This document shows, piece by piece, positions 8,223 through 20,389 of a DNA stretch of 63,806 bases (position 1 is its first letter; each line of letters begins with the position of its first letter). The notes below the pieces were generated by a model that searched no databases, had not been told where the DNA came from, and worked only from the letters and a program-made list of their open reading frames with translations. The stretch is from Bacteroidota bacterium (GTDB lineage: Bacteria > Bacteroidota > Bacteroidia > Bacteroidales > UBA12077). Made by a program: the position numbers and the translations under genes. Location of the stretch: positions 1 through 63,806 of the forward strand of contig JAYEKP010000088.1 of the NCBI GenBank assembly GCA_034661075.1, written 5' to 3'.

Positions 8223-8717
8223 ATGAAAATCAAAAACTTCCTTGCATTATTTCTCATCTTAATGGTTGTTTGGGTATTAGTAAACAACTCCTTTTCCGGG
8301 AAAATTATTATTATAGGATTTATACTTTCAGCATTTATTGCATTTTTTTTCGGAACAAATTTACGGATTTTCGATGAGCTTAAATTTACGCCAACAGCGG
8401 TAGGGTACACTTTAATTTATCTTTTTGTATTTTTAATCGAATTAATCAAATCAAACCTCGATGTTGCCCGCCGGGTACTTACTCCCTCATTACCCATTAA
8501 TCCGGGAATTGTAAAAACCAAAACAGTATTAAAATCAAAAATGGGGCGTATGATTTTAGCTAATTCAATTACGCTTACCCCCGGAACACTTACCGTTGAT
8601 ATAGATGGCGATACTTTATATATACACTGGATTGATGTATGTTGCGACGATATTGACAAAGCAACACAAACCATTATTAAAAAATTTGAAAAACATTTAG
8701 TCAAAATATATGATTAA
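8223..8717 (+). CDS. mrpE: Mrp/Mnh-type cation:proton antiporter subunit E (MbxA/MbhA-like)
   Basis: 164 aa. MnhE-type sequence (ANSITLTPGTLTVD). First gene of the operon. Its stop overlaps the next start by 8 nt. Confidence 0.88.
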   Translation: MKIKNFLALFLILMVVWVLVNNSFSGKIIIIGFILSAFIAFFFGTNLRIFDELKFTPTAVGYTLIYLFVFLIELIKSNLDVARRVLTPSLPINPGIVKTKTVLKSKMGRMILANSITLTPGTLTVDIDGDTLYIHWIDVCCDDIDKATQTIIKKFEKHLVKIYD

Positions 8718-8970
8718 TAAAATTCTATTTATAGCAGCAATCATCATGTTGTTAGCGATTTTGCTAACACTTTACCGATTTATTAAAGGCCCTTCCGCTG
8801 CTGATAGGTTGGTGGCCTTTGATGTAATGACTGTAAGCTCTCTTGCACTTATAGCGCTCATTGCAAATTTTGCATCCCGGGTAATATATATTGATGTAGC
8901 ATTAGTTTACGGATTACTTAGCTTCCTGGGGATTATAATTGTTTCACGTTTTCTGGAAGGGGGGTTATAA
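8710..8970 (+). CDS. mrpF: Mrp/Mnh-type antiporter subunit F
   Basis: 86 aa, 3 TM helices, GPSAADRLVAFDVMT motif typical of MnhF. Confidence 0.88.
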   Translation: MINKILFIAAIIMLLAILLTLYRFIKGPSAADRLVAFDVMTVSSLALIALIANFASRVIYIDVALVYGLLSFLGIIIVSRFLEGGL

Positions 8971-8972
8971 TT

Positions 8973-9344
8973 ATGGATAGTACAATAGGTATAATTGGTG
9001 CAATTTTGGTGTTGTCAGGCTCCATATTTATCTTTTTAGGGGCTTTGGGCTTAGTGCGTATGCCTGATATATTTAATCGCATTCAGGCAGGAACTAAAGC
9101 ATCTACGTTGGGAACTTTTCTTTCTCTCATCGGATTATTGTTAATTACACCCGAATGGTGGGGCAAATTAATTTTATTAATGATATTTATCTTAATTACC
9201 AATCCTGTTTCGTCCCATGTTTTAGCAAGAGCAGCTCATTTTATTGGTGTTCCGCTGGCGGATAAAACGATAACCGATAAATATAAACAGGAAAAAAAAA
9301 CACTTTTGATTAACGACGAAATAAAAAACGATACCCATGATTAA
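8973..9344 (+). CDS. mrpG: Mrp/Mnh-type antiporter subunit G
   Basis: 123 aa. GALGLVRMPDIFNRIQAGTKASTLG is typical of MnhG. Confidence 0.88.
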   Translation: MDSTIGIIGAILVLSGSIFIFLGALGLVRMPDIFNRIQAGTKASTLGTFLSLIGLLLITPEWWGKLILLMIFILITNPVSSHVLARAAHFIGVPLADKTITDKYKQEKKTLLINDEIKNDTHD

Positions 9345-9582
9345 TCTTTTAATAACAATTGTCATCGGGATTTTAATTTTGATTATGGCCATTGTTGCCA
9401 TACACAATAAAAATCTAATAGTAGGCATTATAGCAGCAGGAGCCGTTAGTTTATTTGCTTCTATTCTGTATTTACTACTTGCCGCACCCGATGTTGCCAT
9501 GACCGAAGCCGCCATAGGGAGTGGTCTTTCTACAATTATTTTCTTTTATGTACTCAATAAAATAAAGAAACAAAATGGTTAA
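9337..9582 (+). CDS. MbhD-like small membrane subunit (DUF4040 / MnhB N-terminal-like)
   Basis: 81 aa, 3 TM helices, LLAAPDVAMTEAAIG motif. Overlaps both neighbours by 8 nt. Confidence 0.8.
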   Translation: MINLLITIVIGILILIMAIVAIHNKNLIVGIIAAGAVSLFASILYLLLAAPDVAMTEAAIGSGLSTIIFFYVLNKIKKQNG

Positions 9583-10273
9583 GAACACTTTTATATTTGT
9601 TTTGCTAGTAGGTTTTGTATTTCTGTTCTTCAATCTTTTTGCTGATTTTACCGGGAATACAGAACTTAATGAGCTTGCCGGCCATTATGCCGGCTCGGGG
9701 CATGAAGAAGTTGGTGCTGCTAACCTTGTAACTGCCGTGATTGTTACTTATCGTGGATTAGACACCTTGGGCGAAGTTACCATTTTGTTCTTATCGGCTG
9801 CCATTGTCAGCTTCTTGCTTAAAATTGAAACCTCAACAACAGATGACCGGAAGCTAAGAGCAACAAGTGAAATTTTGGATACTGCATCCAAAGTTTTAGT
9901 TCCCGTAATTTTTATTTTTGGTATTTATGTTTTTATCAACGGGCACCTTACACCCGGTGGTGGATTTCAAGGGGGAGCAATTATAGCATCAGGCCTTGTA
10001 TTAATATTACTTGCAAAACCAATAAGACGGATTAGCCATAAGCTGATTTCTATTGTTGAATCCATTTCGGGTTTAAGCTTTGTATTATTAGGTGTTGCAG
10101 GAATTCTTTTTGCTGCAGGGTTTTTAGACAATAAAATATTGTCGCTCGGTGAATTCGGAACTATTTTTAGCGCTGGCTTAATCCCTATCATATACATTTT
10201 TGTAGGATTAAAAGTTGGCGCCGAGTTATCGTCAATTATAACTAATTTACAGGAAAATCAGAACGAAGCATAA
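9575..10273 (+). CDS. MnhB-domain membrane subunit (MbhE/F-like)
   Basis: 232 aa. ANLVTAVIVTYRGLDTLGEVTILF and GHLTPGGGFQGGAI motifs of the MnhB family. Confidence 0.82.
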   Translation: MVKNTFIFVLLVGFVFLFFNLFADFTGNTELNELAGHYAGSGHEEVGAANLVTAVIVTYRGLDTLGEVTILFLSAAIVSFLLKIETSTTDDRKLRATSEILDTASKVLVPVIFIFGIYVFINGHLTPGGGFQGGAIIASGLVLILLAKPIRRISHKLISIVESISGLSFVLLGVAGILFAAGFLDNKILSLGEFGTIFSAGLIPIIYIFVGLKVGAELSSIITNLQENQNEA

Positions 10274-10644
10274 TGGAAAACTTAAATATAGAAACCGTAA
10301 CATTAATTACTGGAATAGTCCTTTTACTCATAGGTATATGGGGCTTACTTACCCAAAAAAATCTGATAAAAATGGTGATTGGGTTTGCTTTATTCGATAC
10401 CGGGATACATATTATAATGGTAAGTATCGGATATGTTAAAAATCGCACCGCTCCAATACTCGACCAGGCAGTAAAAACAAACGAAGCAGCAGAAAAAATT
10501 GTAGACCCTGTTCCACAGGCACTCGTTCTTACTGCTATTGTCATCGGGCTGGGAATTACAGCATTAATGCTTGCCTATGTTTTAAAAATGTATCAGAAAA
10601 AGAAATCTTTAGAAATCAATAATTATAACGATTTAAAATGGTAA
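10273..10644 (+). CDS. MnhC/NuoK-like membrane subunit (MbhG-like)
   Basis: 123 aa, 3 TM helices, NuoK/MnhC-like. The start shares 1 nt with the upstream stop (TAATG). Confidence 0.82.
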   Translation: MENLNIETVTLITGIVLLLIGIWGLLTQKNLIKMVIGFALFDTGIHIIMVSIGYVKNRTAPILDQAVKTNEAAEKIVDPVPQALVLTAIVIGLGITALMLAYVLKMYQKKKSLEINNYNDLKW

Positions 10645-13600
10645 GACCTTTATATATTATTGCTATTGCATTAGGAACAGCTTTTTCGTTGGGATTTTTT
10701 AAAAAGGCCAATCGAAATATTCCTTATGCATTCATGTTTTTGGCCATGGCTTTCATGGCATTTATTTCGGGCCAGTGGCTTTATGCTTTTTTAGCCAATC
10801 AGCAAGAAGCGATTCAAATTTTTACAGCAGGTTTTCAACCCCCATTTTCTATTAGCTTGCAAATGGGATTGCACGAAGCGGTTTTTCTGAGTTTGATTAA
10901 TGGAATTGGAGTATTATCTGCAATCTATTTATACGAACAATTCCGGGATAAAGGGGTGCAAATGATGATGGTTTTTATTTTGCTGTTTATGGGATTAAAC
11001 GTAATCATCATGACCCGCGATATTTTTAACCTGTTTGTTTTTCTCGAAATCTCAACCATTGCCCTTATTGGATTAATTTTATTAGAGAAAAAAGAGCATG
11101 CGATGAGTTCGGGATTTAAGTATCTGATTGCATCAGGAATAATAAGCGGGATATTGCTCATCGGAATTATTGCCATCTATTATTACAACGGCACATTATT
11201 CATGAATGACATTATTAGCTCTAACCCGCTTCTTCTAAAGGGTGGTTCAGTAGCTATTTTTCTTACCTTAATAGCAATCGTATTAGAATTAAAACCATTC
11301 CCGGCCAATGGATGGGCTTTAGATGTTTATGAAAGTGCACACCCGGGAGTTGGAGCCATTTTATCTGCCGCAATGGGCACGGCAATGCTATTTGTATTGT
11401 ATAAAATAACTCCCTTCATTGCTGATCCATGGTTTAATGTAATTGCTACCATTGGAATCATCACGTTTATTGGATCAAACCTCTTAGGAATTCAGCAAGA
11501 TAATGCCCAGCGCTTGTTAGGCTACTCTTCCGTAGGGCAGTTAGGATTAATTATGCTTGTTATCGGATTATCACCGTATCTTGGGGATAATTATCTATTT
11601 ATAGGGTTCACCCTTTTAATTAGCCACTTCCTGGCAAAAGCAGGTTTATTTTGGATAGCCGGTATTATCAAACAAAAAAAATTAAAAGGATGGTCTGTGC
11701 TTCGAAAAAAACCACTTTTAATGGTATTGTTTGGTACATTTATTTTTGCATTAATTGGGTTTCCTCCATTCCCATCATTTATGGGAAAATGGGAATTAAT
11801 TATGCAATTATCCCTATCAGGACAACATATATGGATGTTTTTGATTTTAATTGGTTCTTTGTTTGAATCAATATATCTTATAAGATGGTTTAGTGTGTCC
11901 CTTAAAACTGATAATACGGGGTTAAAAACTTTCAAAATTAAGCTTCATTCGATTCTGCCTCCTGCAATTTTTGGAATTGCAATTTATATATTTGGGTATA
12001 TTGCTGGAACATATCTAGATGCAGCAAAAGCTATCAATTATATCCCATTATTATTCATTATTTTTATAGCTTTAATTGATTTCTTACCTGCATGGGTGAA
12101 AAATATTATTTCAATATTTGGAGTTATTTTATATATAATATTTATTTATCCTACAGTAGAAGGTGATTTATTGAGACAAATTTTCCTTGGAATATTTTTA
12201 GGTGGTGCAGTTATAACATTATTTTCTGGATTTTATTATAAGGGTAAACGAGTGGGGTTTTATCCAATGGCATTAGCTATGTTTGCTGGTTTGGCAATGC
12301 TTATTACTGCTACTAATCTGTTTGAGATACTTTATGGTTGGGAATTAATGACAATTGGCTCATATTTTTTACTCATTAGAGGTAAAAAATCACAACCCCA
12401 CGGTTATAGCTATATGATGTTTTCAATTGGAGGTTCTTATGCTATAATGTTTGGATTTGCATTAGCGTTCACTAGTGCTGGAAATTTAGGATTAATTGCA
12501 TTAACTGGCATTAATGTCCTTCCAACTTTAGCATATTCTTTAATTTTATTAGGTTTCATGACAAAAACAGCCTCTTTCGGAGTGCATATATGGTTACCTG
12601 GAGCCCATGGAGAAGCTGTTGCAGATATTCATTTTATGGCATCCGCAATTTTACTTAAAGCCGGTGTGTTTGGAATTATTTTAGTGTTATTCGGAATGGG
12701 TTCTGAAGCAACTTATGCTAAAAATATATTATTAGCTCTTGGTTGGATTGGAGCCATTTCAGCTTTAATTGGAAATATGGCAGCAACATTTCAGGAAAGT
12801 GCAAAACGATTGCTTGCTTGGTCAAGTATTGGACAATTAGGATATATTATTTTTGGTCTTGCCACAATGTCGTATTTAGGTTGGATAGCTGGATTATTTT
12901 ATACCGTAACTCACTTTTTATATAAAGGTGTTTTATTTTTAATTATAGGAGGCATTGCTCTCAAATTAGGAACTCCTCTAATGTACAAAATGGGTGGGCT
13001 AATTAAAAAAATGCCATTTTCTTTTATTGCTGTATTAATTGCGATTATAACTTTGGCTGGAGTACCTCCCCTAGTTGGTTTTGCAGGTAAATGGCTGTTT
13101 TATAATACAATTATTAGCGAAGGTTTTTATTTTCAAGGAGTTGTTGTATTGTTTTCTGGAATAGTTGCATTCCTTTACCTTTTTAGATTAATACATACCA
13201 TTTTTTTAGGCCAGCTTAAAGATGAACATAGATATGTAAAAGAAATATCTCCATGGTTGTTAATTCCTGTATACTTGCTTTTAATAGGTATAATGATAAT
13301 ATCGGCAAGACCGGAAATTATTTTAAAACCTTTAGGAAATTATTTAATTGCCTATTTCCCAAATGGGGCAATTACTTGGAATGGAACAATGGCTAGTACA
13401 GGATTAGGATACTGGAATGGATATTGGGTAATGATAATCATCGGTGTAATGTTTGTATTTGTTCTTGGATGGTTACTTTACACCAATGCCAAAGCACAAA
13501 AAGTAAAACAATTTAACATGGTATACAGTGGCGAAAGGCCATTTACTCCGGAAACAACACATATTGCTCACAATATGTATGCCGGATACAGTAAAGCTTT

Positions 13601-13763
13601 AGGATTTATTGTGGAGCCATATATTACAAGATTCTGGAATAATATGTCTGATGCATTAGTACATTTAGGCGGGCTGATTAAAAGGATATATAATGGCAAT
13701 GGACAAACCTATGCCTTTTACATTATTGCCTATATTGTAATTACATTTTTTCTTGTTTTTTAA
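10638..13763 (+). CDS. Fused double NuoL/M/N (MrpD)-type antiporter-like subunit (MbxH-H'-like fusion)
   Basis: 1041 aa, all membrane. There are two successive proton-conducting-membrane-transporter-like halves. The first contains GYSSVGQLG, and the second contains WLPGAHGEA and WSSIGQLGY. Confidence 0.85.
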   Translation: MVRPLYIIAIALGTAFSLGFFKKANRNIPYAFMFLAMAFMAFISGQWLYAFLANQQEAIQIFTAGFQPPFSISLQMGLHEAVFLSLINGIGVLSAIYLYEQFRDKGVQMMMVFILLFMGLNVIIMTRDIFNLFVFLEISTIALIGLILLEKKEHAMSSGFKYLIASGIISGILLIGIIAIYYYNGTLFMNDIISSNPLLLKGGSVAIFLTLIAIVLELKPFPANGWALDVYESAHPGVGAILSAAMGTAMLFVLYKITPFIADPWFNVIATIGIITFIGSNLLGIQQDNAQRLLGYSSVGQLGLIMLVIGLSPYLGDNYLFIGFTLLISHFLAKAGLFWIAGIIKQKKLKGWSVLRKKPLLMVLFGTFIFALIGFPPFPSFMGKWELIMQLSLSGQHIWMFLILIGSLFESIYLIRWFSVSLKTDNTGLKTFKIKLHSILPPAIFGIAIYIFGYIAGTYLDAAKAINYIPLLFIIFIALIDFLPAWVKNIISIFGVILYIIFIYPTVEGDLLRQIFLGIFLGGAVITLFSGFYYKGKRVGFYPMALAMFAGLAMLITATNLFEILYGWELMTIGSYFLLIRGKKSQPHGYSYMMFSIGGSYAIMFGFALAFTSAGNLGLIALTGINVLPTLAYSLILLGFMTKTASFGVHIWLPGAHGEAVADIHFMASAILLKAGVFGIILVLFGMGSEATYAKNILLALGWIGAISALIGNMAATFQESAKRLLAWSSIGQLGYIIFGLATMSYLGWIAGLFYTVTHFLYKGVLFLIIGGIALKLGTPLMYKMGGLIKKMPFSFIAVLIAIITLAGVPPLVGFAGKWLFYNTIISEGFYFQGVVVLFSGIVAFLYLFRLIHTIFLGQLKDEHRYVKEISPWLLIPVYLLLIGIMIISARPEIILKPLGNYLIAYFPNGAITWNGTMASTGLGYWNGYWVMIIIGVMFVFVLGWLLYTNAKAQKVKQFNMVYSGERPFTPETTHIAHNMYAGYSKALGFIVEPYITRFWNNMSDALVHLGGLIKRIYNGNGQTYAFYIIAYIVITFFLVF

Positions 13764-13781: not shown

Positions 13782-14690
13782 ATGAACGATATTATAGTCA
13801 AACTTTTATGGACATTATTAGGTTTATTCATTGTGCTGAATTGGGGATTGTTAATGGGTGCAACCATGCGAAAAATTGTAGCACGCGTAGCACATAGATA
13901 TGGAATCCCTTTTTATCAACCCTGGCTCGACCTGATTAAATTGTATTCTAACCGTTCATCGATTAGTCATGGTGTCATGTTTTACTTAGGCCCTGTTTTC
14001 AGGCTTGGTGGCGGATTAGGAATTTTCCTTTTTTTACCGCTCATCTATGGTTCTGAGCATTTTAGTAATTTCTCATGGGCCGGTGATTTAGTATTGATTT
14101 TATACTTCCAGTTTTTTGGGATGTTAGGCATGGCCTTAGGTGCAGGCGAAGGGGGGCACCCAAATTCTGTCATTGGAATTACCAGGGGATTAGGACAGTT
14201 TACCACGGTTGAGCTACCATTAACCCTGGCAGTAATATCTATTGCACTCCAATATAATACTCTTTCAATCTCAGAAATAGTAGCAGCACAACAAGGTGGA
14301 TTTCAAAACTGGACCTTAGTTACCAATCCTATTGCCACAGCAGCAGCTATGCTTTCATTACTTGGATTATTCAGACACGCACCTTTTAACTTAGTTATGG
14401 CACCGAATGAAGTTCCTATTGGGCCACCAACCGAGTATCACTCCGCCTTTTTAGGTGTTCTTAGAACCAATGGTGCAATTTTACATGTAGTTGAAGCGGC
14501 GTTATTTATGAATTTGTTTTTTGGGGGAGCAACCCATTGGGTAGAATTTATTGTAAAAACATTCCTGATTTATTTCTGGTCTGTTTTTGTTGGTGTTGTT
14601 TCACCACGTTTCAGAATAGAACAATCGGTAACCTGGTTCTTAAAAATACCTTTAGCGATAGGTATTTTGGCTGTAATTCTTTACATCTAA
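13782..14690 (+). CDS. NuoH/HycD-like membrane subunit (MbxM-like)
   Basis: 302-aa polytopic protein, complex I subunit-1 family-like. Placed before the NuoB-like gene. Confidence 0.8.
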   Translation: MNDIIVKLLWTLLGLFIVLNWGLLMGATMRKIVARVAHRYGIPFYQPWLDLIKLYSNRSSISHGVMFYLGPVFRLGGGLGIFLFLPLIYGSEHFSNFSWAGDLVLILYFQFFGMLGMALGAGEGGHPNSVIGITRGLGQFTTVELPLTLAVISIALQYNTLSISEIVAAQQGGFQNWTLVTNPIATAAAMLSLLGLFRHAPFNLVMAPNEVPIGPPTEYHSAFLGVLRTNGAILHVVEAALFMNLFFGGATHWVEFIVKTFLIYFWSVFVGVVSPRFRIEQSVTWFLKIPLAIGILAVILYI

Positions 14691-14706: not shown

Positions 14707-15390
14707 ATGTCAGATAATACTAAAAATATAGAAGAAAAAAAGGATAAATTTCTCGCTGAAGAAAACAAAAAAAGAATAGTAACCGGCCCGGATGGGGTAC
14801 AATTTGAAGTAGACCCTTTACAGGATTATTTTTGCGATCAGCGTCCTGTTGCAAAGGATCCCAAAAATAAAGTTATTGAAAAATTTTTAAATTGGGCTCG
14901 GGCAGAATCTTTATGGGTTTTGGGCTTTGGAACCGGCTGTGGGAGTATTGAAATCCCTCCACTACTAACTCCAAGGTTTGATGCTTTTAGATATGGTGTT
15001 CAAATGAGGCCTACTCCCAGACAATCATCGGTACTTATAATTTCCGGATATTTAGCGGTAAAAACATTAAAAAGAGCGATCCGCTCTTACGAGCAAATGC
15101 AAAATCCGAAATATGTACTTGCCTTAGGCAGCTGTACCATTAACGGAGGAATGTACTATGATAGTTATAATACCATTAACCGTTTAGATTATTATTTGCC
15201 GGTAGATGTATATGTGGCCGGTTGTATGCCACGTCCGGAAGCACTATTAGCCGGATTTAATAAACTAAAAGAACGAATAAAAGCCGGAAAAGCTGAAGGA
15301 GCCAACGATTATGCCAACAAATTTGACTGGTACAAAGCCAATCAAAAAAAAATTATTAAAGATTGGAACATGCCTGATTATAATTGGTAA
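14707..15390 (+). CDS. NuoB / hydrogenase small-subunit-like protein (MbxJ-like) with only three cluster cysteines
   Basis: 227 aa. NuoB-like blocks are SLWVLGFGTGCGSIE (canonical FGLACCxxE), PRQSSVLIISG, LGSCTINGGMY and VAGCMPRPE. Only Cys78, Cys143 and Cys173 are present. Confidence 0.85.
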   Translation: MSDNTKNIEEKKDKFLAEENKKRIVTGPDGVQFEVDPLQDYFCDQRPVAKDPKNKVIEKFLNWARAESLWVLGFGTGCGSIEIPPLLTPRFDAFRYGVQMRPTPRQSSVLIISGYLAVKTLKRAIRSYEQMQNPKYVLALGSCTINGGMYYDSYNTINRLDYYLPVDVYVAGCMPRPEALLAGFNKLKERIKAGKAEGANDYANKFDWYKANQKKIIKDWNMPDYNW

Positions 15391-15417: not shown

Positions 15418-15951
15418 ATGAAGGAAATCATTCAAGATATAAAAAAGAGATTCAATTGTACTGATGAGATTGAGCAATCAAAAACGCAGAGTTATATTAC
15501 AGTTCAAAAAGAGTTAGCCATTGCTTTAATTACACATCTAAGAGATATTAAAGGTTTTACACACCTGGTTCTTTTAACGGCTGTAGACTGGATTGAAAAC
15601 AACCAGTTCCAGCTAACCTACATGCTAAATAATCCAACAAAAAAAATTGACTTAGGCGTGCGGGTTTTTATCGACCGCGAAACAGCAACCATGGACAGCG
15701 CACATCATTTATGGGAGCAGATGGCAACCTATCAGCGTGAGTTAAAAGAGATGTTTGGTATTGATTTCCCGGGTAGTCCAAGACTTAACGAACCCTTTAT
15801 ATTAGAAGGATGGGATAACATCCCTCCATACCGTAGAGATTTCGACACCTTAAAATATGCACAGGAAACTTTCTTCCCGCGCGAAGGAAGAGAGACCAAT
15901 GATCCTGCTGAATTTATGAAGAAAAAGATGTATCCCGATGAAGAAAAATAA
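15418..15951 (+). CDS. NuoC-like 30-kDa subunit (MbxK-like)
   Basis: 177 aa. NuoC-type core (LVLLTAVDW..., FGIDFPGSPRL...LEGWD). Overlaps the next gene by 14 nt. Confidence 0.82.
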   Translation: MKEIIQDIKKRFNCTDEIEQSKTQSYITVQKELAIALITHLRDIKGFTHLVLLTAVDWIENNQFQLTYMLNNPTKKIDLGVRVFIDRETATMDSAHHLWEQMATYQRELKEMFGIDFPGSPRLNEPFILEGWDNIPPYRRDFDTLKYAQETFFPREGRETNDPAEFMKKKMYPDEEK

Positions 15952-17128
15952 TAAAATATGGCCAGGCGACCGGTCTAAATACCCGGCTTTTGATGAGAAT
16001 GGAAACCCTATCATCGACTTAAAGTCGCATAAATTAACCAAATTGTGGCATGGGCCTAACCATCCCGGAGTTACAGGAAATATGTCGCTTGAGCTTACCC
16101 TAAGCGGAGATGAAGTAGTGGAAGCGAAAACGCATGTTGGATACTTACACCGTGGATTTGAAAAACTAATGGAACGTCGGTTATATATTCAATGTTTCCC
16201 TACATGTATCAGGATGTGTGTTCCTGAAGCGGACTCAAATGAATATGTTTTGGCAGCATCTATTGAAGATTTAGGGGGAATAGAAATTCCTGAAGCTGCC
16301 TCATGGATGAGAACACTCGTTCTTGAGATGGCCAGATTACAAGTTTTATTAAGAACAGTTCCGGGACAGGCTGCAACTCTTTCATTAGGCATGGGGGCTC
16401 AATGGGGAATGTATTTAAGAGACCTCATACTAGACCGCTTCGAAGAACTCACCGGAGGTCGTATTTATCATATGTTTATTATTCCCGGAGGGGTTCGTGG
16501 ACTATTACCTGCCGGATTCAAAAAACGAATGGAAGAGAATTTAGTAGAGATTGAAGAATTTATCGATAAAATTGAGGATTTAATATTTACCAATGCCATA
16601 TTTAAAAAACGAACTATTGGAATAGGTTACATTGATCCTTCATGGGTAGATAAATATGGCATTGTCGGCCCAAATGCAAGAGCTGCAGGGTATAACCGCG
16701 ATGTTCGAAAAGACTACCCCTATTTAAAATATAATGAACTGGATTTTGAACCTTATGTTGGCAAAGATTCTGATGTATTCACCCGTTCACAAGTAAGAAA
16801 ACATGATTTAATTCAAACGGTTGATTTAATCCGACAAATTCTGGCAAAAGTTCCTGAAAAAGGAGACATTCGGGCAAAAACGCCTAATGTACTACATTGG
16901 CAGCTTCCCAAAGGAGAAACCTATCAAAGAAGTGAATCTTCAAGAGGGGAATATGGTTTATATGTAGTTTCCGATGGTTCCAAATACCCAAGGAGGGTAA
17001 ATCTTAGAGGACCCAGTTATACTCATGCTGTAGCTTTACTCGAAAAATTATTAATCAATGCAAACATTGCTGATGTTCATTCTATCATGGTATCATTACA
17101 AACTTGTCCGCCTGAAATTGAACGATAA
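15938..17128 (+). CDS. NuoD / [NiFe]-hydrogenase large-subunit-like protein (MbxL-like) lacking two of four NiFe cysteine ligands
   Basis: 396 aa. Contains GPNHPG and HVGYLHRGFEKLME blocks. The N-terminal ligand motif reads R-M-C94-V-P-E97 instead of R-x-C-G-x-C. The C-terminus reads Q-T-C390-P-P-E393-I-E-R-stop instead of D-P-C-x-x-C-x-x-R. Confidence 0.85.
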   Translation: MKKNNKIWPGDRSKYPAFDENGNPIIDLKSHKLTKLWHGPNHPGVTGNMSLELTLSGDEVVEAKTHVGYLHRGFEKLMERRLYIQCFPTCIRMCVPEADSNEYVLAASIEDLGGIEIPEAASWMRTLVLEMARLQVLLRTVPGQAATLSLGMGAQWGMYLRDLILDRFEELTGGRIYHMFIIPGGVRGLLPAGFKKRMEENLVEIEEFIDKIEDLIFTNAIFKKRTIGIGYIDPSWVDKYGIVGPNARAAGYNRDVRKDYPYLKYNELDFEPYVGKDSDVFTRSQVRKHDLIQTVDLIRQILAKVPEKGDIRAKTPNVLHWQLPKGETYQRSESSRGEYGLYVVSDGSKYPRRVNLRGPSYTHAVALLEKLLINANIADVHSIMVSLQTCPPEIER

Positions 17129-17145: not shown

Positions 17146-17568
17146 ATTTGGTTATATGATTATTTGAAAAATTGATATAAATATGAGACTTTATTCTTTT
17201 GAAAAACTTGAAGTATGGAAGTTATCACGAAAATTGAATAAAAATATTTATCAAATTAGTGAGAAATTTCCTGATAGTGAGAAATTTGGATTAACATCTC
17301 AAATAAGAAGAGCTTCAGTTTCAATTTCTTCAAATATTGCAGAGGGAAACTCAAGAAAATCAGGAATTGAACAAGCTAGATTCACAGAATTTGCATTTGG
17401 AAGTTTAATGGAAGTGTTGAATCAACTAATACTTGCTAATGATCTGGAGTTTATTAATGAACAAATTTTAAATAATGAAAGATTATTAATAGAAGAGATA
17501 GGTAATAAGATAAATAAATTGAAAGAAGTTCAATTGAGAAAAGGGCACAATTCTTCATATAACCAAAT
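17146..17568. repeat. 14-bp perfect inverted repeat bracketing the four-helix-bundle gene (arms 17146-17159 ATTTGGTTATATGA and 17555-17568 TCATATAACCAAAT)
   Basis: Read directly. The left arm is 24 nt upstream of the start codon. The right arm lies inside the last codons of the ORF. Confidence 0.8.
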
Positions 17569-17578
17569 CAACAAATAA
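17183..17578 (+). CDS. Four-helix-bundle protein (23S rRNA intervening-sequence protein / Avd-like family)
   Basis: 131 aa. YSFEKLEVWKLSRKL...FGLTSQIRRASVSISSNIAEGNSR...FAFGSLMEV is the family signature as I remember it. It interrupts the L-N gene junction of the operon. Confidence 0.85.
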   Translation: MRLYSFEKLEVWKLSRKLNKNIYQISEKFPDSEKFGLTSQIRRASVSISSNIAEGNSRKSGIEQARFTEFAFGSLMEVLNQLILANDLEFINEQILNNERLLIEEIGNKINKLKEVQLRKGHNSSYNQINK

Positions 17579-17594
17579 TCTAATAAACAATAAA

Positions 17595-19391
17595 ATGAAA
17601 TTAAAAGACATATTAACACCTTTTACCGCCTGGAAAAATGTTTTTGAAGATCCCAAAACGGTAAAAGACCCTTTAAATGACCGGCCAGGAGCCGAAAGAT
17701 ATAGAGGCTTTCATAAAAATGATATCGAAACCTGTATTGGGTGTGGTACGTGTGAGGAAATCTGTGAAAATCAAGCCATTGATTTGGTTCCTGTAGAAGG
17801 CATCGAAACAAAAGACGGGGACAGTGGATTACGGCCCAGAATTGATTACGGAAGATGTTGCTGGTGTGCCCTATGTGTGGATGTTTGTACCACAGGGTCG
17901 CTAACTCTAAGTAACGAATATACCTGGGTTTCTGAAGATCCTGAAGACTTTAGATATACCCCTGGGGTTGATAAAAAAACCTGGGACAAAAATGAAGCAG
18001 GATGGAAAAAACCTGAACATGGGTATGAATTATATCCTCTTGAGCGGGTGAAAATCGAGCATCTGAAACCGGAAGAGAGGGATCAATCATTTATAGAGAT
18101 AATAAAAGGTTACTCCAAAGAAGAAGCACAAAAAGAAGCCGACCGTTGTGTGGAATGTGGGATATGTGTTGCAACCTGCCCTGCACATATGGGAATCCCT
18201 GAATATATTAAAGCCGTTCGGGAAGATAATATTGAAGAAGGACTTAGAAAATTGTATGAAACCAACCCCTTACCCGAGATTTGTGGAAGGATATGTACGC
18301 ATAAATGTGAAACGGTTTGTTCTGTCGGGAATCTGGGTGAGCCTCTATCTATCCGATGGCTCAAAAGATATATTGCCGACCAGGTGGATTCTGAAGACTA
18401 TAAACGAATTTTAGGAACCGATGGCATTGAAAATAAAGATAAAAAAATAGCGATTATTGGCTCTGGGCCATCGGGATTATCAGCAGCATACTATCTGGCT
18501 CTCATGGGATATCAGGTTAAAATATTTGAAGCTTATCCACAAGCCGGTGGAATGATGCGTTATGGAATCCCGGAGTATCGATTACCTTACGGCCAGATTG
18601 ACAAAGATATAAATTATATTCTGTCATTAGGTGTTGAAATAAAATACAATACACGAATAGGCAAAGATATAACCCTTGAAAATCTTCAGAAAGAATACGA
18701 CGCAGTATTTTCAGGTACAGGATTGCATTTGGGCAGAAGTACCCGAATACCGGGAACAGACCATGAAAATGTTTATCAGGCAATCGATCTACTGCGAGAT
18801 ATTACTATGGGGAAAGAAGTCCCTGTTGCTGAAAAGATAGTTGTAATTGGAGGGGGAAATGTAGCAATGGATATTACCCGCTCGCTGGCACGTTTACAAA
18901 ATCAGAAGTATGGTAAAGTACATATAACAGCAACCTCGCTTGAATCTGAGGATATTATGCCCGCCGACCGGGAAGAAGTGGTAGAGGCGCGCGAAGAAAA
19001 AGCAACCATTGAACCCGGATGGGGACCGACATCCATCGAGATTGAAAACAATAAAATTAAAGGATTGCATGTGCAGAAATGTACTTCTGTTTTTGATAAA
19101 GATGGCCGCTTCAATCCAAAATTTGATGAATCACAAACAAAATTCTTCGAAGCTGATATGGTGATTGAATCCATAGGACAGGGAATGGATATTGAATACA
19201 TCAGTAAAGATACCCGCGAACAAATGGAGTTTGACCCTCGAGGTAGAATTATTGTTGATAATTATTTCCAGACAGGTGCCAAATGGCTGTTTGTAGGTGG
19301 TGATATTATCCAGGGGCCGGATGTTATCCATGGTATTGCCAACGGACATAAAGCAGCCATAGGAATTGACCGGTTTTTAATGAATAAATAA
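17595..19391 (+). CDS. Fusion protein: NuoI/MbxN-like 2x[4Fe-4S] ferredoxin domain + GltD/NfnB/PreT-like FAD- and NAD(P)H-binding iron-sulfur flavoprotein
   Basis: 598 aa. N-terminal CIGCGTCEEIC and CCWCALCVDVC motifs. GltD-type Fe-S region follows (RCVECGICVATCP...GRICTHKCETVC). FAD fold IAIIGSGPSGLSAAYYL...AGGMMRYGIPEYRLP, and a second dinucleotide fold IVVIGGGNVAMD. Confidence 0.85.
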   Translation: MKLKDILTPFTAWKNVFEDPKTVKDPLNDRPGAERYRGFHKNDIETCIGCGTCEEICENQAIDLVPVEGIETKDGDSGLRPRIDYGRCCWCALCVDVCTTGSLTLSNEYTWVSEDPEDFRYTPGVDKKTWDKNEAGWKKPEHGYELYPLERVKIEHLKPEERDQSFIEIIKGYSKEEAQKEADRCVECGICVATCPAHMGIPEYIKAVREDNIEEGLRKLYETNPLPEICGRICTHKCETVCSVGNLGEPLSIRWLKRYIADQVDSEDYKRILGTDGIENKDKKIAIIGSGPSGLSAAYYLALMGYQVKIFEAYPQAGGMMRYGIPEYRLPYGQIDKDINYILSLGVEIKYNTRIGKDITLENLQKEYDAVFSGTGLHLGRSTRIPGTDHENVYQAIDLLRDITMGKEVPVAEKIVVIGGGNVAMDITRSLARLQNQKYGKVHITATSLESEDIMPADREEVVEAREEKATIEPGWGPTSIEIENNKIKGLHVQKCTSVFDKDGRFNPKFDESQTKFFEADMVIESIGQGMDIEYISKDTREQMEFDPRGRIIVDNYFQTGAKWLFVGGDIIQGPDVIHGIANGHKAAIGIDRFLMNK

Positions 19392-19408: not shown

Positions 19409-20389
19409 ATGATAGATCTTTCGACCGAATACATGGGGTTAAAACTAAAAAACCCAATTATCGCAGCCAGCTCGGGACTAACCGACACGGCAGAAAAAGT
19501 AAAAAAACTGGAAGATAGTGGTGTAGGTGCTGTTGTTTTAAAATCATTGTTCGAAGAACAAATCCGTATGAAAGTTGATTCTTTAGGTATGAACAACATG
19601 TTTAATACCTATTCGGATAACGAAAATTACATAGCCTTTTACACCAAACAAAATACTGTAAACGAATATTTAACGCTTATCAAAGACTCCAAAGCAAAAG
19701 TTAATATTCCGGTTATTGCCAGCATTAATTGCTACTCTATGGGCGAATGGGTTGAGTTTACCCAAAAAATTGAAGAAGCAGGAGCTGACGGTATTGAATT
19801 AAATATGTTTATATTACCCGGAGATATTGAACAAAAAGGAGAAGAAATTGAACAAAAATATTTTGACATTATCCGGAAGGTTCAGGAACATACATCGCTA
19901 CCTGTTGCTGTGAAATTAAGCTACTATTTTTCGGGAATGGGCGAAATTTTAAAGCGTATCTCTCAAACCGGAATAAAAGGAATGGTATTATTTAATCGTT
20001 TTTATAATCCTGATGTTGATTTGGAAAATGAAAAAATAAAACCTTCGAGAATTTTTAGTGTCCCTGAAGAAAACTCCATGTGTATCCGTTGGATTGGTTT
20101 ACTATCGGGTAAAGTAACTTGCGACATGGCTGCTTCAACGGGTATCGATGATGGATATGGCGCATTAAAAAATATTCTGGTCGGCGCCAAAGCCGTTCAG
20201 GTAGCATCTGCTTTATATCAAAATAAATTAGAACATATTAACCAAATGCTAACCCAGATGGAATCGTGGATGCAGAATAAAGGGTACAATTCTATCCAGG
20301 AAATTATTGGAAAATTAAATTACTCCAAACACAATGTTGAATTGTACGAAAGAGCCCAGTTTATGAAATATTACTCGAGTTACGAATAA
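19409..20389 (+). CDS. Dihydroorotate dehydrogenase-like (PyrD/PreA-fold) FMN TIM-barrel protein lacking the class-1 catalytic Cys
   Basis: 326 aa. N-terminus LSTEYMGLKLKNPIIAASSGLT and GADGIELN are DHOD-like. Where class-1 DHOD/DPD has LN(L)SCPN, this protein has LNMFILPG. No C-terminal ferredoxin domain. Confidence 0.75.
   Translation: MIDLSTEYMGLKLKNPIIAASSGLTDTAEKVKKLEDSGVGAVVLKSLFEEQIRMKVDSLGMNNMFNTYSDNENYIAFYTKQNTVNEYLTLIKDSKAKVNIPVIASINCYSMGEWVEFTQKIEEAGADGIELNMFILPGDIEQKGEEIEQKYFDIIRKVQEHTSLPVAVKLSYYFSGMGEILKRISQTGIKGMVLFNRFYNPDVDLENEKIKPSRIFSVPEENSMCIRWIGLLSGKVTCDMAASTGIDDGYGALKNILVGAKAVQVASALYQNKLEHINQMLTQMESWMQNKGYNSIQEIIGKLNYSKHNVELYERAQFMKYYSSYE

Follow-up and report, generated by a model that had tools for sequence, protein, structure and literature searches.

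We analysed the gene at positions 14707-15390 (forward strand) of a 63,806-nucleotide stretch of DNA from a Bacteroidota bacterium (assembly GCA_034661075.1, contig JAYEKP010000088.1, positions 1 to 63,806), to which, at its full length, we refer as the window. The gene is an open reading frame coding for a protein of 227 amino acids (aa), here called J, a small subunit of the NuoB fold and the putative carrier of a proximal [4Fe-4S] cluster. [quoted passage not shown] The explanation that we favour, taken as a whole, comprises a bacterial MbsJ counterpart, a three-Cys proximal cluster and, by homology with the archaeal complex, an open iron in that cluster, and in this complete form it is probably correct.

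Among proteins of solved structure, the best relative of J was MbsJ of Pyrococcus furiosus (6u8y_J, PDB 6U8Y), to which it aligned without gaps over 164 residues with an E value of 4.9e-61; NdhK/NuoB (about 1e-38), MbhJ (9e-27) and HycG (1e-20) ranked lower. The same chain was the top fold match of an AlphaFold2 model of J, obtained with 56 sequences as input and a predicted local distance difference test score (pLDDT) of 84.3 (TM-score 0.88, root-mean-square deviation 1.4 Å over 163 columns, 53% identity). In the sequence alignment the MbsJ segment AFCTGCGGIE lies over GFGTGCGSIE of the window protein. Precisely, C78, C143 and C173 of J correspond to the MbsJ ligands C28, C93 and C123, G79 corresponds to G29, at the site of the second Cys of the NuoB tandem pair, and G75 corresponds to C25, a vestigial and non-ligating Cys. 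Hence the vestigial Cys that stands three residues before the first ligand in P. furiosus MbsJ is not kept in the window protein; we did not treat it as defining MbsJ, since the C25A mutant is active in P. furiosus.

We read the Cys codons of J directly in the DNA. The protein contains four Cys: C43 (motif DYFCDQRP, codon 14833-14835), C78 (GFGTGCGSIE, 14938-14940), C143 (GSCTINGG, 15133..15135) and C173 (AGCMPRPE, 15223..15225), all on the forward strand. The first putative ligand, C78, lies in the loop G75-T76-G77-C78-G79 (14929..14943, forward strand), and C143 and C173 are assigned as second and third ligand by alignment, conservation and codon. As far as Cys residues are concerned, the predicted proximal [4Fe-4S] site offers only these three. 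The earlier note on this DNA had set the first motif, FGTGC78GSIE, against FGLACC of NuoB and the two-Cys motif of Mbh/Ech small subunits, and had described GSC143TINGG and AGC173MPRPE as intact and C43 as the only additional Cys. The codons and the Cys count of the translation agree with all of these statements, and the hydrogenase motif is a CxxC in which both Cys ligate (PMC7684303). As for NuoB, we considered 27 canonical genes from the same phylum: FGLACCAIE was present in 26 and the tandem Cys in all 27, together with GxCxxxGG (mostly GSCSNCGG) and PGCPPRP.

The conservation of the site was evaluated on two sets of orthologues. The first consisted of the 120 closest database sequences (75-86% identity; named Salinivirga, Bacteroidales, Bacteroidota or 'Chlorobi'), hence 121 sequences with the query. 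The second consisted of named loci, namely the best 80 of at least 589 relatives found by a pattern scan of GTDB with one genome per species (69-97% identical), hence 81 with the query. G75, C78, G79, C143 and C173 were invariant in the 120 closest homologues. In the named loci the three ligand Cys were present in 81/81 and G79 was again invariant, and position 75 was Gly in 79 and Ala in 2, so that Cys occurred at this position in none of about 200 orthologues. The tandem Cys, for which the earlier note had suggested checking the orthologues, was carried by none of the 120 + 80 sequences. Only three Cys in total were present in 58 of the 121 proteins of the closest set, and no conserved Cys beyond C78, C143 and C173 was found in the orthologue alignments. 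On metagenome contigs from sediment, marine and sludge samples (three independent studies), the loop region varied only by synonymous third-position changes, in codons 73, 76 and 79. Judging by these comparisons, the three-Cys site is under strict purifying selection.

What such a site means is known from P. furiosus. There, the ligands of the MBS proximal [4Fe-4S] cluster are only C28, C93 and C123 of MbsJ, and a fourth Cys, C25, is too distant to ligate, the ligand loop being three residues shorter than in MbhJ (PMC7684303). The MbsJ C25A and MbsL C85A/C385A mutants retained full activity with dimethyltrisulfide. Ferricyanide converted the cluster to [3Fe-4S] with a loss of about 98% of the activity, which Fe2+ restored under reducing conditions; that is, the polysulfide/dimethyltrisulfide reductase activity is lost reversibly when the unique iron is removed (PMC7684303). 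The site-differentiated cluster that the earlier note had named as the proposed catalytic site of MBS is described in the same work. Three-Cys ligation is, hence, a published hallmark of the MbsJ family and not a peculiarity of the window's genome. Residues 68-190 of J (123 residues) aligned to residues 24-149 of MbhJ (126 residues), a span that is 3 residues shorter as judged from alignment end coordinates only, and therefore J appears to share the shortened ligand loop described for MbsJ (PMC7684303). By analogy with the archaeal cluster, that of J is likely to have an open iron, i.e. one iron without a Cys ligand. The three-Cys, MBS-like cluster that the earlier note had proposed is in this way supported at the level of sequence and homology (E 5e-61 to MbsJ, with the same three Cys).

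The names that J receives from automatic annotation do not reflect this assignment. Pfam assigned the 227-aa protein to Oxidored_q6, the NuoB 20-kDa family (7.7e-21), and in NCBIfam it matched the NuoB model NF005012 and otherwise only generic NuoB models, with no MbsJ-specific model in that collection; the automatic name 'NuoB' is misleading. No other gene of the window's genome (98% complete) than the one at 14707-15390 has the NuoB-fold domain PF01058, which argues that the organism has no canonical complex I and that the complex is not a paralogue of a resident one. Canonical NuoB was present in most of the other sampled genomes of the phylum.

The genes around J, all on the forward strand, are those of an MBS/Mbx operon: Mrp-type subunits, two antiporter-like MbsH/H' units, MbsM, J, K, L and N, in this case 13 genes. 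The Mrp-type membrane arm (8223..13763) comprises MnhE, F, G, MbsD, MbsE/MnhB, MbsG and a fused MbsH-MbsH' of 1041 aa (10638-13763), which were assigned with Pfam and whose order is kept in the 80 named loci. It is followed by an MbsM/NuoH-type membrane anchor of the peripheral arm (13782..14690; Pfam NADHdh, 7.5e-42), which adjoins J in related loci too. After J come an MbsK/NuoC-type subunit (15418..15951; Pfam Complex1_30kDa, 6.6e-25, in conserved gene order) and an MbsL-type large subunit (15938..17128), whose best solved relative is 6u8y_L (3.5e-86). In the electron-input subunit (17595..19391, 598 aa) an MbsN-type domain with two [4Fe-4S] clusters (residues 5-115; 6u8y_N, 2.4e-21) is fused to a flavoprotein part that is NfnB/GltD-like, binds FAD/NAD(P)H by homology and takes up residues 150-597 (NfnI and NfnB structures 4ylf_B and 5jca_L, about 1e-75), and NCBIfam PRK13984 matched it over its full length. 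The window operon does not have the free-standing MbsN of the MBS type, hence its input module is a variant, predicted by homology to bind FAD and NAD(P)H. The same operon was present in 80/80 named loci, with the MbsN::NfnB fusion wherever the contig reaches so far.

By analogy with MBS, the MbsL-type subunit would form the substrate chamber together with J. It has both relic [NiFe] Cys (C94 and C390), i.e. two of four, and the quinone ligands H38 and Y87 of T. thermophilus Nqo4 fall on its T46 and V95, which were invariant in 78 MbsL orthologues. C94 was kept in 70/78 of these (Ala or Thr in 8) and C390 in 44/78. We also observed that Ser/Ala334 was combined with Cys390 in 44 orthologues and Cys334 with Tyr390 in 31, with none having both Cys or neither (in the window S334 is encoded at 16937-16939 and C390 at 17105-17107). 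In the orthologue alignment MbsL thus seems to retain a thiol either at 334 or at 390, and the pattern may be a single ancestral double change and not compensation.

Two further genes of the region vary among loci. A 23S-rRNA-IVS-protein gene, coding for a four-helix bundle, lies between L and N in the window (17183-17578) and likewise in four loci; considering L040, L048, L054, L062, L079 and L102, it was found after J in L040 and twice, at the J-K and L-N junctions, in L102, and it looks like a mobile or selfish insert in otherwise identical operons. The MbsN::NfnB gene is followed at 19409-20389 by a gene with a full-length match to the NCBIfam 'dihydroorotate dehydrogenase-like protein' PRK07565. 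This gene was found mainly in Bacteroidota loci, plus the Chlorobiota-labelled L041 and the Thiohalospira locus L102; in the remaining Proteobacteria and in Marinimicrobia and Spirochaetales, it was missing after the fusion wherever the contig runs on.

The best 80 loci came from several phyla. Bacteroidota included Salinivirgaceae, Lentimicrobiaceae, Prolixibacteraceae, Draconibacterium and Flavobacteriales, and cultured carriers among them are Salinivirga cyanobacteriivorans, with a J that is 86% identical, and Prolixibacter denitrificans DSM 27267 (locus L097); Gammaproteobacteria were represented by Ca. Thiodiazotropha, Sedimenticola, Ca. Thiosymbion and Thiohalospira, and Alphaproteobacteria by Profundibacter and Marinosulfonomonas; Chlorobiota-labelled metagenome-assembled genomes, Marinimicrobia, Aminicenantes and Spirochaetales were also present. 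In a sample of 400 genomes of the window's phylum, MbsJ-type genes were found in only two besides the window's own genome, a distribution that we consider patchy, not absent. DNA of the window was present in brine and sediment metagenomes; no RNA data set was among those listed for it, which has no bearing on its expression. The J proteins of the Gamma- and Alphaproteobacteria (loci L087-L111) were 70-75% identical to the Bacteroidota protein and nested in the same clade, which implies that the operon moved as a whole from one phylum to another.

About twenty clusters of MbsJ type came out of a search of 1.84 billion representative proteins, with the common signature TGCG / GxCxxNGG / GCMPRxE and a C-terminal helix with Y..Y..NQ. 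The lineages with this signature included Thermococcus (T. kodakarensis among them), Thermotogota, WOR-3 and Chitinispirillaceae. The position equivalent to 75 was Cys in Thermococcus (including T. kodakarensis), in Thermotogota, in Chitinispirillaceae/Deltaproteobacteria and in two unnamed clusters, Val in WOR-3, and Gly in the clade of Bacteroidota, Spirochaetales and Proteobacteria. In a quick maximum-likelihood tree of 50 rows, of which the deeper order is unresolved, all MbsJ-type proteins stood on one long branch apart from NuoB (Shimodaira-Hasegawa-like approximate likelihood ratio test, SH-aLRT, 92), and the Gly clade with the N-terminal extension was monophyletic (27 rows, SH-aLRT 98). 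From the states of position 75 and the tree we infer that the vestigial Cys was lost at least twice, with Gly/Ala in the large clade and Val in WOR-3. Such repeated loss, with unvarying ligands, fits the mutagenesis in which C25 was dispensable. Among more divergent relatives, P0157 has Gly at the first ligand position (GTGGSA) and has lost that Cys, and P0149 and P0322 have CSACGA with CMPRAD.

On the basis of the operon and of homology with MBS, the following mechanism can be proposed. The electron donor would be NAD(P)H and not free ferredoxin. By way of the NfnB-like flavoprotein that is joined to MbsN, electrons would pass from NAD(P)H to FAD, two NfnB-type clusters, two MbsN clusters and then the proximal cluster. 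The open iron of the latter would face the chamber formed by J with the MbsL- and MbsM-like subunits and would be the catalytic site, as proposed for MBS, binding and reductively cleaving polysulfide or other sulfane sulfur. As in the three-loop coupling proposed for MBS (PMC7684303), sulfane reduction in the J/L/M chamber would drive the Mrp-type arm, and turnover would be coupled to H+/Na+ movement through this membrane arm.

Whether the substrate is sulfane sulfur, as the analogy with MBS suggests, appears to us evenly balanced. Bacteria lend the proposed mechanism indirect support: many carriers of the operon are sulfur-cycle organisms, the window's DNA occurs in metagenomes of brine and sediment, and the T. 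maritima mbx operon was induced 4.4-fold by S0 (PMC9431562). We advance only tentatively the broader idea that open-iron [4Fe-4S] chemistry, so far known from hyperthermophilic archaea alone, may also take place in a large mesophilic bacterial clade that has spread horizontally, where it would connect NAD(P)H with sulfane sulfur directly and translocate ions; the clade would comprise anaerobic Bacteroidota, Marinimicrobia, Spirochaetota, and sulfur-storing or sulfur-oxidising Gamma- and Alphaproteobacteria. Some points weigh against the explanation that we favour. Between NAD(P)H and polysulfide there are only about 60 mV in standard potentials, so that little energy is left for ion pumping. 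The substrate of the bacterial complex is taken over by homology only; a non-Cys fourth ligand, with MbsJ, MbsL or solvent supplying an O or N atom, would be compatible with the sequence; and the clade is also present in sulfur-oxidising Proteobacteria, in which direction or substrate may differ.

Some of these points are shared by a different explanation of the whole complex, which we consider unlikely. Along the lines of the older Mbx model, it could work as an Rnf-like ferredoxin:NAD(P)+ oxidoreductase or as one of another non-sulfur kind, with the missing ligand as a relic that has no part in catalysis, or its site could act on organic disulfide/trisulfide, thiosulfate or selenium species. 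The small driving force from NAD(P)H to polysulfide would agree with this, as would the presence of aerobic or microaerobic sulfur oxidisers and Alphaproteobacteria among the carriers, and in Degli Esposti 2015 (PMC4758237) the gltD-like subunit of 'mbx-like' operons is read as a site of NAD(P)+ reduction. However, pumping is tied to the chemistry in the J/L/M chamber by the three-loop argument, and a reaction taking place elsewhere would lack this coupling; the Mbx model for P. furiosus has been superseded by direct sulfane reduction (PMC7684303); and the three-Cys site is under strict purifying selection.

It is improbable, in our view, that the cluster is fully ligated by the three Cys plus an Asp, Glu, His, Ser or Thr of J or L, in which case it would be an electron relay only and catalysis would take place elsewhere in the chamber. 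Family-specific invariant polar residues do lie near the ligands (T76, N146, S153, Y150 and Y154), the P. furiosus work speaks of 'non-cysteinyl coordination' and names no ligand (PMC7684303), and the MbsL Cys that is always at 390 or 334 hints at a thiol needed near the cluster. Yet the unique iron of P. furiosus can be removed with ferricyanide and the activity follows it, the nearby Cys are dispensable (PMC7684303), and C94 of MbsL is Ala or Thr in 8/78 orthologues.

The last Cys to be considered, C43, lies in an N-terminal extension of J (residues 1-55; 14707..14871, forward strand) that is not in archaeal MbsJ, the alignment with which starts at residue 56 of J. The earlier note had given this extension 60 residues; it is indeed present, and, as residue 56 aligns with residue 6 of MbsJ, its length relative to MbsJ is about 50 residues. 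AlphaFold2 modelled it as a hairpin (23-35) and a short helix (37-40) with pLDDT 67-82. As C43 is the only other Cys, and the extension is modelled with moderate confidence, one could suppose that it folds back to bring C43 to the cluster as a conventional fourth ligand, and Cys was found at this position in 63 of the 121 sequences of the closest set and in 55/81 of the named loci. The remaining sequences argue against this: the closest set had Ser in 29, Leu in 23 and Glu, Ile or Ala in 6, and the non-Cys states across both sets were S, L, I, T, E and A, so that C43, the conservation of which the earlier note had proposed to check, is replaced in a third to half of the orthologues, and in 58/121 proteins the three ligands are the only Cys. 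Furthermore, the whole extension is missing from the operons with a short J and from archaeal, Thermotogota and WOR-3 members. Since C43 is so often replaced, it is not a ligand according to this conservation argument, and a fourth-ligand role is hardly credible.

The operons with a short J are two loci of the same phylum, L112 (G029:C55) and L113 (G265:C51), which represent a sister operon with a J of 183-186 aa lacking the extension; here MbsH and MbsH' are separate genes (about 492 and 625 aa) and MbsN::NfnB is still fused. Among the 80 closer loci, each contig that spans H-H' whole has it as a fusion (about 1040-1250 aa), and the alignment of every one of the 80 J genes reaches into the extension. 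In this pattern the extension accompanies the fusion of H with H', not that of MbsN with the flavoprotein, and it may contact the fused antiporter subunit, MbsH-MbsH'.

That the missing Cys results from a sequencing error, a strain-specific mutation or gene decay has a negligible probability: we found no point in favour of it, and it is ruled out by the loop kept in about 200 orthologues of several phyla, the synonymous-only metagenome variation, the intact operon and the position of J as the sole PF01058 gene of a 98%-complete genome.

For the explanation that we favour, i.e. a bacterial MbsJ with a three-Cys cluster and probably an open iron, the three-Cys ligation of MbsJ was already known (PMC7684303), and operons of this type, with a gltD-like subunit, were described from Thermotoga and Proteobacteria in 2015 (PMC4758237). 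What is new is that a very large clade of mesophilic bacteria, labelled NuoB in the databases, has the three-Cys feature without any change, and that the same clade has dropped the vestigial fourth Cys altogether. In the literature that we searched, there was nothing specific on a mesophilic bacterial MBS or on a three-Cys bacterial MbsJ. Annotations throughout name J 'NADH-quinone oxidoreductase subunit NuoB', even though the N2 ligand pair is absent from it and the quinone site from its partner; metabolic models built from genomes therefore mistake the complex for complex I. The survey is also an independent evolutionary test of the P. furiosus mutagenesis, in which the fourth Cys near the proximal cluster is dispensable and the three ligands are constant. 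If the bacterial enzymes share the mechanism of MBS, then Fe-S-catalysed sulfane reduction would be common in brines, sediments and symbioses, and no curiosity of hyperthermophiles. Run forward, it would be a low-energy sulfur respiration in fermenters; run in reverse in sulfur-oxidising symbionts, it might be an ion-gradient-driven route from sulfide/polysulfide to NAD(P)H; and nature itself, by dropping the vestigial fourth Cys completely, would confirm that three ligands are enough. The interest lies mainly in the open-iron mechanism becoming testable in cultivable mesophiles at ordinary temperatures.

Finally, we compared J and its complex with the known systems. MbsJ of P. furiosus has the same fold, the same three cluster ligands, the same loop length and the same C-terminal helix with its Y..Y..NQ motif, as well as Gly where NuoB has the second tandem Cys, and the MBS complex has the same MbsM, K, L and N-type partners and an Mrp-type membrane arm. 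The differences are that in the window Gly replaces the vestigial C25, J has the extra N-terminal residues, MbsH and MbsH' are fused, and MbsN, which accepts ferredoxin in archaea, is fused to an NfnB-like NAD(P)H flavoprotein; moreover, the host is a mesophilic bacterium and not a hyperthermophilic archaeon.

In comparison with NuoB/Nqo6/PSST/NdhK, the fold is shared (TM-score about 0.85), and C78, C143 and C173 are the counterparts of Cys 1, 3 and 4 at the N2 site. However, identity is about 45%, the tandem CC gives NuoB four Cys ligands where J has C78-G79, NuoB has GCPPRPE where J has GCMPRPE, and the C-terminal helix with Y..Y..NQ is absent from NuoB. Furthermore, NuoB has the quinone-binding NuoD as partner, whereas the partner of J is without the quinone His and Tyr. 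The small subunits MbhJ/HycG/EchC of group 4 [NiFe] hydrogenases (6CFW chain J, 7Z0S chain G) have a homologous fold and a homologous cluster position, but their CxxC, with both Cys ligating (PMC7684303), is on a loop 3 residues longer, and their partner carries a [NiFe] site with four Cys.

Similar in operon structure are the 'mbx-like' operons of Thermotoga and Proteobacteria. According to excerpts of PMC4758237 and PMC9431562, in which there is no discussion of three-Cys ligation in bacteria, they too have Mrp genes, then NuoH/B/C/D-like genes, then a GltD-like flavoprotein replacing a plain NuoI, and they keep the relic [NiFe] Cys in the large subunit. They also share the J signature TGCG / GCMPRPE. 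J of Thermotogota, however, keeps the vestigial Cys (HYCTGCG) where the window protein has Gly, and the clade of Bacteroidota and Proteobacteria forms, apart from the 'mbx-like' Thermotogota, a separate branch (SH-aLRT 98) with the N-terminal extension.

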